NCBI RefSeq assembly: GCF_057098645.1
Contig: NZ_CM169472.1
Length of the DNA: 64,000 nucleotides
Strand: one strand, 5' to 3'
The notes beneath the pieces were generated by a model. It did no database searches. It was not told the origin of the DNA and was given only the letters and a program-made list of their open reading frames with translations. The translations under genes were made by a program, and so were the position numbers. This document shows positions 54,229 to 55,102 of this stretch, piece by piece (the first letter of the stretch is position 1; each line of letters starts with the position of its first letter).

Positions 54229-54251
54229 TATTTTTGTTATTCGGAGAATGC

Positions 54252-54476
54252 ATGAAGAAATTATTGGTAACCGTAAAGCCTTTTCAGGGAACAATTCCGT
54301 TCCGTATTTTGCAGCGTGGTCGTGTTCTTGTTGAAGGTTCGTTCAGTGGTAAATGTACGCAATTACACTCCCGGACCTTTCAGGTGAATGCCACGAATGA
54401 AGAGCTAACCGTTGAGTGTACGATGAATGCCGCTAAATGCCGCATGGTATCCGCTGCATTACAGCCAGTGTGTTGA
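54252..54476 (+). CDS. hypothetical small protein
   Basis: ORF starting MKKLLVTVKPFQG immediately after Rz; no family recognised. Confidence 0.3.
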   Translation: MKKLLVTVKPFQGTIPFRILQRGRVLVEGSFSGKCTQLHSRTFQVNATNEELTVECTMNAAKCRMVSAALQPVC

Positions 54477-54832
54477 GCGACCTTATTATTCATGCGCGGT
54501 ATTGTCGCCGTATTCCTGCATTAACAGAGACCGCAGCCCGACCGGGAGAATCCTCTGCGCGAGTGTGCGGGGATAATCAAAAACGATACACACCGGGGTT
54601 TACCGCGTTAACGGAGCGCGGCGTTGTCCCCTCATGGTCGCTGGTCCGGTGCGATGGTGGAAGAAGCCGGATGTTTATCACTATTAATTGATAACACAGA
54701 AATGGATTCATTGATTTTCAGCACGTTTTTGTATTCGTATTATTGAACATCTGTTTATTTTACTTTTAACATATTGATAATAAAAAGAGCTGTAAATCTT
54801 TAGATGAGTCGATTTTGTCCGGGGAAGTTCAA

Positions 54833-54973
54833 ATGGATTTTATGCTGACGGTTTCTGGTGTGGTTATCCTGTCCATTGCTTATACTGCAGATAAATATGG
54901 CTGCCATTTGTTATCACGTATTGGCGCTTATTGCTCGTTGATGCTGATTTTCTCGTCGCTTTTTTTTGAGTAA
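54833..54973 (+). CDS. small hydrophobic peptide (46 aa)
   Basis: MDFMLTVSGVVILSIAYTADKYGCHLLSRIGAYCSLMLIFSSLFFE in an AT-rich segment. Confidence 0.3.
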   Translation: MDFMLTVSGVVILSIAYTADKYGCHLLSRIGAYCSLMLIFSSLFFE

Positions 54974-55102
54974 GTTATATTAATTATAACAAATAATTTT
55001 CTGTGTTTTTTCAGGCTATCCCGTCAGACGGGAAGCCTGTACTGCCGGGGGACGAATGGAAAACTGATGTGTCCGGTAACTGTGTGTTCTGTGAACACCA
55101 TG

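Follow-up and report, generated by a model that had tools for sequence, protein, structure and literature searches.

A conserved structured RNA element and an AT-rich insertion at the lysis-packaging junction of a lambdoid prophage of enterohaemorrhagic Escherichia coli

Background

Polycistronic messenger RNAs (mRNAs) of phages contain intercistronic hairpins that are processed by RNase III, such as the R sites of T7, the sib site of lambda and the N-leader sites. Here we analyze a structured element that resembles such sites in its layout and that is located between the lysis and the packaging genes of a lambdoid prophage of enterohaemorrhagic Escherichia coli (EHEC). The DNA under study is a stretch of 64,000 nucleotides (nt) from NCBI RefSeq assembly GCF_057098645.1, contig NZ_CM169472.1, which is referred to as the window, and the interval concerned is 54229-55100, which a preliminary description had put forward as strongly AT-rich, horizontally acquired moron DNA with two small open reading frames (ORFs).

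Like the RNase III sites, the element (54494-54671) has an irregular helix of considerable length that is interrupted by internal loops, with about 26 coaxially stacked pairs contributed by the helices P1, P2, P3' and P3. It lies in sense orientation between two blocks of genes on what would be one long transcript, and it lacks its own promoter. Unlike these sites, it is larger (178 nt in three domains), possesses two more hairpins with a conserved loop and shows no sequence similarity to them.

The lambdoid prophages of EHEC and enteropathogenic E. coli also encode small RNAs (sRNAs) such as AgvB, AsxR, STnc100 and Pas, which are found at conserved prophage positions and in many copies per genome (PMC4104026; bioRxiv 10.64898/2026.05.13.724894). 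The element shares with them the non-coding nature, the conserved position in lambdoid prophages and the high copy number. However, those sRNAs are found at the pR' site, with Q on one side and the holin gene on the other, and are Hfq-binding RNAs with individual promoters and terminators, whereas the element follows Rz and has neither promoter nor terminator; furthermore, the Rfam models of these sRNAs do not match it, and the Hfq peaks of strain Sakai do not include it.

A third kind of system is represented by the morons, a concept of Juhala et al. 2000 (cited in PMC4104026), examples of which in lambdoid phages are bor and lom of lambda and gp15 of HK97. The DNA directly to the right of the element (54672-55136) is similar to them in that it separates two conserved modules of the late operon, occurs in some phages while close relatives are without it, and is AT-rich, with a gene for a small membrane protein and a promoter-like sequence. 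It differs from them in that its product has just 46 amino acids (aa) and belongs to no recognised family, its promoter and terminator are candidates, and its right junction remodels the C-terminus of ynfO. The interval from Rz to cos is a recognised insertion zone, which holds bor, ybcV-ybcW and ylcI in lambda and DLP12.

Conserved structure of the element

Positions 54494-54671 (plus strand, 178 nt) hold a non-coding element with a conserved structure of seven helices on the strand of late transcription, as revealed by a covariance model and by the covariation among its copies. In detail, 136 copies in fetched loci were reduced to 70 distinct sequences. A prediction with RNAalifold from 27 representatives paired the 5' part of the element over a long range with the invariant core GUGCGGGGAUAAUCAAAAACGAUAC and proposed further hairpins. 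This prediction was refined to the following seven helices, numbered by element nt:

P1: 6-12 with 90-96
P2: 18-28 with 72-82
P3': 39-43 with 62-66 (CGCAG/CUGCG)
P3: 44-46 with 51-53
P5 outer: 102-105 with 135-138
P5 inner: 110-114 with 124-128 (the variable hairpin)
P6: 152-157 with 173-178 (conserved loop GCGRUGGUGGAAGAA)

In the MAFFT alignment 96.0% of the 1,072 pair cells were canonical, compared with 36-62% when the partners were slid by 1-3 columns. Changes on both sides were found in 10 pairs, compared with 3.2 +/- 1.3 in column shuffles, and not one of 500 shuffles was as good. When the alignment was fitted to the model, towards which it then leans, 97.1% of the cells were paired and 14 pairs (62 cells) were doubly changed. 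On the opposite strand the same pairs were canonical in 88.1% of the cells as against 96.0% on the plus strand, 105 cells being G-U; because of this lower pairing of the minus strand, we take the strand of late transcription as the RNA sense.

The hairpins themselves tell a similar story. At least five versions of P5 exist which are unrelated but self-complementary (CCGCG/CGCGG, CUGUG/CGCAG, UCUCAU/AUGGGA, CAGC/GCUG and the lambda type), and P6 alternates among CCGG/CCGG, CCUG/CAGG and UCGA/UCGA. In addition, whole hairpins have been cleanly removed by natural deletions in Stx2_111430 and in APEC IMT5155, the former of which takes out just the inner hairpin and thereby supports P3'.

A covariance model built from the alignment (R1) found one match in the window, with 201.9 bits, and a full-length match at every locus that had been fetched by the sequence core of the element. 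It also aligned at full length in two regions fetched independently, i.e. at 46,869-47,032 of lambda, between bor and lambdap78, and at 579,010-579,174 of K-12, in the DLP12 prophage. An earlier impression from BLAST that lambda carries only half of the element was withdrawn on the strength of these full-length copies in lambda and DLP12.

Could the element instead be part of a protein-coding gene? ORFs have been assigned at this place in VT2-Sakai (orf48) and in Stx2 phage I (ORF-84), the window has an ORF at 54437-54691, and the frames of the window and of VT2-Sakai cross the element in the same register. That frame, however, is open in 37% of the 70 variants and the common GCGTGAG variant introduces an in-frame stop; no other frame is open in more. 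Lengths range from 160 to 180 nt and differ by numbers that are not multiples of three, and the 84-aa translation has no Pfam match, so that a coding function is very improbable. Hypothetical proteins are annotated over the element at 1179-1439 of the fetched VT2-Sakai locus, at 1176-1421 of the Stx2 phage I locus and, in another fetched locus, at 1462-1644 and 1595-1873; given that the variants share no conserved frame, these annotations are probably erroneous.

Distribution and borders of the element

When complete E. coli genomes were searched with 54480-54675, 4,142 out of 5,426 were found to contain the element, with a total of 10,799 copies and up to 11 per genome, almost always without annotation. 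Plasmids account for 691 of these copies, and the one plasmid copy that was inspected adjoins iss. Among phages, 398 records contain the element, including those of lambda, 434, VT2-Sakai and ES18. When 100,044 species genomes were scanned with the core pattern, it was found in Escherichia only and on short contigs in unrelated metagenome bins. The bins concerned, labelled Proteobacteria, Nanosynbacter, Thiomicrorhabdus and Collinsella, hold full-length, high-scoring copies, which look like contamination of the assemblies by E. coli prophages.

The position of the element is constant: it is found 3' of Rz, or of bor/iss where these are present, and 5' of the packaging region, irrespective of the packaging type. 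In lambda, 434 and DLP12 it is followed by ylcI, cos and Nu1, in 933W and VT2-Sakai by a different terminase, in mEp460 and ES18 by the end of the genome record, and in the window by a packaging module of the HK97 type. Its borders are sharp and common to the copies, running from GCGC to GAAGAARCCGGA, and more than 20 different downstream flanks start exactly at its 3' end. In the most compact phages what we take to be a lambda-type cosQ/cosN lies 35-60 nt downstream of the element, sometimes preceded by a terminator-like hairpin with a T-run. In lambda the distance between element and cos is 1.4 kb.

Borders of this kind may also suggest that the element is conserved as DNA only, either as a patch of homology for recombination or as a protein- or terminase-related site near cos, with no function as RNA. 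The element is placed exactly where mosaic junctions are and is flanked on either side by many alternative sequences, and cos is nearby in the compact phages; the near-identity of the element among otherwise diverged prophages could mean recent exchange, and the fold of the single sequence is unexceptional. Nevertheless, we hold this explanation to be improbable, given that 96-97% of the pair cells are paired and 10-14 pairs doubly changed, far above the slid and shuffled controls, that the variable hairpin has been swapped for unrelated self-complementary sequences and that whole hairpins have been cleanly lost. DNA-level explanations are disfavoured in particular because the covariation is strand-asymmetric and because 1.4 kb separate the element from cos in lambda.

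Proposed role of the element

A search of Rfam 15 gave no match to the element, either with E up to 1 over 52000-57000 or with E up to 10 over 54470-55110, apart from chance fragments of microRNA and small nucleolar RNA families. A scan of the whole window at the gathering thresholds, which recognised STnc100, AgvB, sok, C4, DicF, isrK and an IS3 pseudoknot elsewhere, likewise returned no match within either the element or the AT-rich part. No description of the element was found by text searches of the literature, which was accessible incompletely, so that an earlier description is possible. The idea that the element is one of the known EHEC prophage sRNAs was rejected: AgvB, AsxR, the EcOnc peaks and the Pas sRNAs sit at the pR' site between Q and holin, and the six of the 63 listed Sakai Hfq peaks that were mapped (EcOnc04, 05, 06, 08, 13 and 35) are all near Q or holin.

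The element starts 15-20 nt past the preceding stop codon, be it that of Rz or of the 74-aa ORF, and no conserved promoter and no terminator belonging to the element itself was found. Because of this arrangement it would be made as part of the late mRNA that is antiterminated by Q. Its most likely role would be that of a cis-acting structure which serves processing or protects a 3' end and thus parts the lysis message from the head-gene message, and we take such a role as the likeliest because the layout of the stack resembles intercistronic sites of the RNase III type. The main alternative is that a discrete RNA is released after processing.

It is quite possible, although somewhat short of probable, that the element represents an undescribed family of structured phage RNAs with a dedicated role at the boundary between lysis and packaging. 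The carriers of such a family would be lambda, 434, Shiga-toxin phages of the 933W/VT2 type and about three quarters of the E. coli genomes. Its members could act in cis, in the processing or stabilisation of the late mRNA, or as released RNAs acting in trans on phage or host factors.

Several observations weigh against the reading as a structured RNA element in general. Folding of the window's element is no better than that of shuffled sequences, with z values of -0.09 for the plus and +1.22 for the minus strand, and the variation in P1, P2 and P3' is mostly one-sided, from G-C to G-U to A-U. Free recombination among the phages that carry it makes the sequences interdependent, and the number of covariation events is therefore smaller than the counts suggest. 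No copy was found in HK97 or HK022, even when the search filters were switched off, and because of this the element is accessory and dispensable for a lambdoid phage. Its range is also narrow, comprising Escherichia, Shigella and Salmonella. Finally, the Hfq peaks of uninduced O157 Sakai include none at the mapped element copy of prophage Sp3 (chromosome 903,301-903,478), and the listed peaks include none near the estimated position of the copy in Sp5.

Division of the interval into modules

On balance, the flagged interval appears to consist of three independent modules, namely a 74-aa gene, the structured RNA element and an AT-rich insertion:

54252-54476, plus strand: 74-aa gene (WP_000735655.1, phrog_2571), with a GGAG Shine-Dalgarno sequence 5 nt upstream of the start
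54494-54671, plus strand: conserved structured RNA element, 178 nt, non-coding
54672-55136: AT-rich insertion or replacement of 465 bp, candidate moron, absent from the collinear phage 569R3

In an alignment of four prophages these three pieces assort independently of one another. O104:H4 and SHP24 are without the 74-aa ORF and have everything to its right, while vB_EcoS-569R3 has the 74-aa ORF with an in-frame deletion of 9 nt and about 50 unrelated bases in place of 54672-55136. The region 54494-54671 is nearly unchanged in all four.

The base composition follows the same division. With 43.3% guanine plus cytosine (GC) the interval 54229-55100 as a whole is below the 51.4% of the window and at the 1.9th percentile of windows of 872 bp. 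By stretch, the GC content is 44% for 54229-54476, 58% for 54477-54660 and 32.5% for 54661-55020, the last being the single lowest stretch of 360 bp in the window; within the 161 bp that precede the 46-aa ORF it is 28%. By module, it is 46% for the 74-aa gene, 60% for the element and 35.9% for the insertion, and the codon composition of the 74-aa gene is ordinary (GC content at third codon positions 0.44).

The characterisation of the whole interval as strongly AT-rich therefore applies to 54661-55020 and not to the two stretches before it. Similarly, the proposal of moron DNA is retained for 54672-55136, which is absent or replaced in collinear phages and has the lowest GC content, and is given up for the left half: the 74-aa gene is widespread and of ordinary composition, and 54494-54671, a GC-rich element in the middle of the interval that had been overlooked, is conserved and a regular constituent of lambdoid late regions.

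The AT-rich insertion

The left junction of the insertion coincides exactly with the 3' end of the element, and the right junction lies inside ynfO, the last 11 codons of which are supplied by the right end of the insertion. It was found in 733 of the 5,426 E. coli genomes, at 789 places and with an identity of at least 95% in all but one, as well as in 4 phage records; no copy is on a plasmid. The one diverged copy, with 80.8% identity, is that of SHP24. The insertion accompanies about 7% of the element copies (789 versus 10,799 places), always follows the element directly and is found beside packaging genes of both the HK97 and the lambda type. The following features were located in it:

54715-54743, plus strand: sigma-70-like promoter candidate from a consensus scan (TTTTCA, 17-nt spacer, TATTAT)
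54753-54787: 35-nt block GTTTATTTTACTTTTAACATATTGATAATAAAAAG, identical in both diverged versions, with a -10-like hexamer GATAAT on the plus strand
54796 to 54768, minus strand: promoter-like site overlapping the invariant block
54833-54973, plus strand: 46-aa ORF (WP_000347013.1, MDFMLTVSGVVILSIAYTADKYGCHLLSRIGAYCSLMLIFSSLFFE), with GGGGAAG 6 nt upstream of the ATG
54974-55011, plus strand: hairpin of A and T only (GTTATATTAATTATAAC) with a T-rich run (TTTTCTGTGTTTTTT), together a weak candidate for the terminator of the 46-aa ORF

Comparison with SHP24 shows that conservation is uneven along the insertion. Identity is 69% over the first 49 bp (54672-54720), 88.6% over 54721-54790, which holds the 35-nt invariant run with GATAAT, 69% over the 5' leader (54791-54832), 81% with no frameshift over the 46-aa ORF, and about 60%, with insertions and deletions, over everything downstream of it. 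The ORF and the block upstream of it are thus the best-conserved parts. In the promoter candidate at 54715-54743 the -10 hexamer of SHP24 reads GATAAT. The AT-only hairpin, about 60% conserved in SHP24, was missed by the terminator scan, there being no G-C pairs in its stem.

We interpret 54672-55136 as a typical moron, which would be expressed from its own promoter in the lysogen.

The 46-aa ORF

The position of the hydrophobic ORF at 54833-54973 given in the preliminary description is correct, and RefSeq lists its product as a hypothetical protein. The peptide consists of two hydrophobic stretches around the basic loop DKYGCHLLSR and has a grand average of hydropathy (GRAVY) of 1.11. The ORF is under purifying selection: 12 of the 25 substitutions relative to SHP24 are synonymous, where 24% would be expected, which corresponds to a ratio of nonsynonymous to synonymous change (dN/dS) of 0.28 with a binomial p of 0.008. 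The replacements are conservative hydrophobic swaps (V/I, S/A, M/I, F/L). It is probably a real gene for a small inner-membrane peptide.

The following points count against a functional gene in a self-contained moron. The selection estimate has a single diverged comparator, SHP24, with 25 substitutions, and several database variants of the ORF are frameshifted at a run of eight T. The peptide has no family in Pfam, PHROG, NCBIfam or PADLOC, and neither a word-indexed search nor an exhaustive profile search of 1.84 billion representative proteins found a homolog outside E. coli. Promoter-like matches in the region are at chance level, with 5 found and 3.5 +/- 1.7 expected, and no convincing terminator was found for the ORF.

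From these points one may argue that the 465 bp are non-functional filler from illegitimate recombination and that the ORF is a chance frame picked by annotation pipelines. The lack of a protein family and of homologs beyond E. coli, the frameshifted variants on record, the promoter-like sites at chance level, the missing terminator and an unremarkable RNA fold of the region (z -0.09) all fit such an origin. Nevertheless we regard it as rather unlikely. The ORF is intact in the SHP24 copy, at 19% divergence, whereas the 3' flank has insertions and deletions; there is an excess of synonymous changes, the hydrophobic replacements are conservative, and the ORF and the upstream block are the best-conserved parts. 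Moreover, 732 genomes, which belong to many serotypes, have retained the insertion with at least 95% identity, beside two different packaging modules.

The peptide would insert in the inner membrane, where it may act, most plausibly, in exclusion, host fitness or membrane perturbation; a toxin-like role is conceivable as well. It is similar to the type I toxins Hok, Ldr, Ibs and TisB in being short, very hydrophobic, borne by a prophage and encoded in AT-rich DNA, and it differs from them by the lack of homology and of an identified antisense RNA and by having two hydrophobic helices instead of one. On the type I toxin model translation of the ORF would be held down by a small RNA that is transcribed antisense from within the conserved AT-rich block. 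Apart from the size and hydrophobicity of the peptide, this model draws on the minus-strand promoter-like site (54796 to 54768) within the 35-nt invariant block and on the prophage location, the window having another type I system (sok, 46497-46667). However, neither an antitoxin RNA in Rfam nor a toxin family in Pfam was matched. Transcription from the candidate antisense start, which precedes the ORF, would give an overlap with the mRNA of no more than a few bases, no terminator was detected on the minus strand, and folding of the mRNA region is not out of the ordinary. The layout with two helices also differs from that of Hok, Ldr, Ibs and TisB, which have a single helix. We therefore consider the model decidedly improbable. 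An elaborate fold of the mRNA around the ORF, considered separately, was not supported (z -0.09).

The 74-aa gene and the neighbouring genes

The 74-aa ORF at 54252-54476 is a genuine small phage gene of ordinary composition; its position had been given correctly, and RefSeq lists it as a hypothetical protein. It matches the PHROG profile phrog_2571, a family with no assigned function, with E 2.8e-28 over residues 1-73. Its homologs form 66 clusters in E. coli and Salmonella, go down to 56% identity and are nearly all 69-76 aa long. The homology searches that had been suggested for the small ORFs thus gave homologs in E. coli and Salmonella for the 74-aa ORF, and in E. coli only for the 46-aa ORF. 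No match to the 74-aa protein was found in Pfam, NCBIfam or PADLOC, and a sequence profile search of the PDB was empty.

The AlphaFold2 model of the 74-aa protein is all-beta with seven strands, at a mean confidence score (pLDDT) of 89, and predicts a small beta-sandwich. Foldseek against the PDB gave weak matches only, to beta-sandwiches of the lectin or carbohydrate-binding module type (E > 0.3, template-modelling score < 0.6). An assignment of function from the fold was dropped, the model being confident but with no significant match in the PDB.

The interval joins the end of the late lysis cassette of a lambdoid EHEC prophage to the start of its HK97-type packaging module. Prophages of E. 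coli O103:H2 12009, O145:H28, O26, O45 and other EHEC strains match 54229-55330 with 100% identity, and phage PPyecE_EH1910 does so with 99.4%. In the RefSeq annotation of O103:H2 the order is holin, lysozyme, the 43-aa ORF, Rz ("lysis protein"), two hypothetical proteins, YlcI/YnfO on the minus strand, HNH endonuclease, small terminase and large terminase. The neighbours named in the preliminary description agree with this, Rz1 by its lipobox and the ynfO-like and HNH genes by profile matches:

53770-54228: Rz with embedded Rz1 (lipobox in Rz1), upstream of the interval
55103-55288, minus strand: YlcI/YnfO (DUF3950) gene; Pfam PF13132 (E 8.7e-20), NCBIfam NF041551, phrog_949
55330-55695: HNH gene (E 5e-6), downstream of YlcI/YnfO

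Both YlcI/YnfO scores are above the curated cut-offs (PF13132 with 70.8 bits versus 25, NF041551 with 35.1 bits versus 30).

Other features of the window

The lysis region upstream holds several further features. At 53627-53758, just upstream of Rz, a very hydrophobic ORF of 43 aa with a match to phrog_4906 (E 3e-21) is listed as hypothetical; it represents a further small membrane peptide within the lysis cassette. In the gap between the lysozyme gene and Rz, and thus inside the late operon, a strong bidirectional terminator-like hairpin is present at 53425-53457, with a 14-bp stem (AAAACCCCGTTTG...CAAACGGGGTTTT). A second AT-rich patch (52050-52800, 37-42% GC) lies between holin and lysozyme and contains a minus-strand ORF of about 90 aa (52412-52684; WP_000138558.1, hypothetical). 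This patch is probably another moron.

Upstream of the lysis genes, at 49365-49616, there is a convergent pair of sRNAs, STnc100 on the plus strand (147.8 bits) and AgvB on the minus strand (96.5 bits), an arrangement known from the pR' moron site of EHEC prophages. A cluster of matches to C4 antisense RNA, isrK and DicF on the minus strand at 37300-37774 corresponds to the sRNA cluster of a prophage immunity and early region. The sok match at 46497-46667 is to the antitoxin RNA of a type I system of the hok/sok kind, and a frameshift pseudoknot of the IS3 family (ALIL) at 47983-48099 indicates that an insertion sequence element is nearby.

On the packaging side, the hexamer GTTAAC occurs five times in the intergenic region between HNH and terminase genes (55785-55910), in part within a perfect palindrome of 20 bp (CCAGTTAACATGTTAACTGG); by chance, about 3.6 copies per strand of a 7-mer like TGTTAAC are expected in 64 kb. 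These repeats are probably recognition repeats for terminase or cos of the HK97-type module.

Conclusion

As a moron the AT-rich insertion is routine, adding one more small membrane peptide to the accessory pool of EHEC prophages. The element, in turn, is a precise landmark of a mosaic junction with morons on either side, which makes it useful for the annotation of prophage late regions. Should it prove functional, a conserved RNA structure that neither annotation nor RNA-family libraries record would be present in lambda, the most studied of all phages, and in the Shiga-toxin phages. Since stx and the lysis genes are on the same transcript as the element, a processing or stability element at this place could affect the timing of lysis or its balance with virion assembly and hence the release of toxin.

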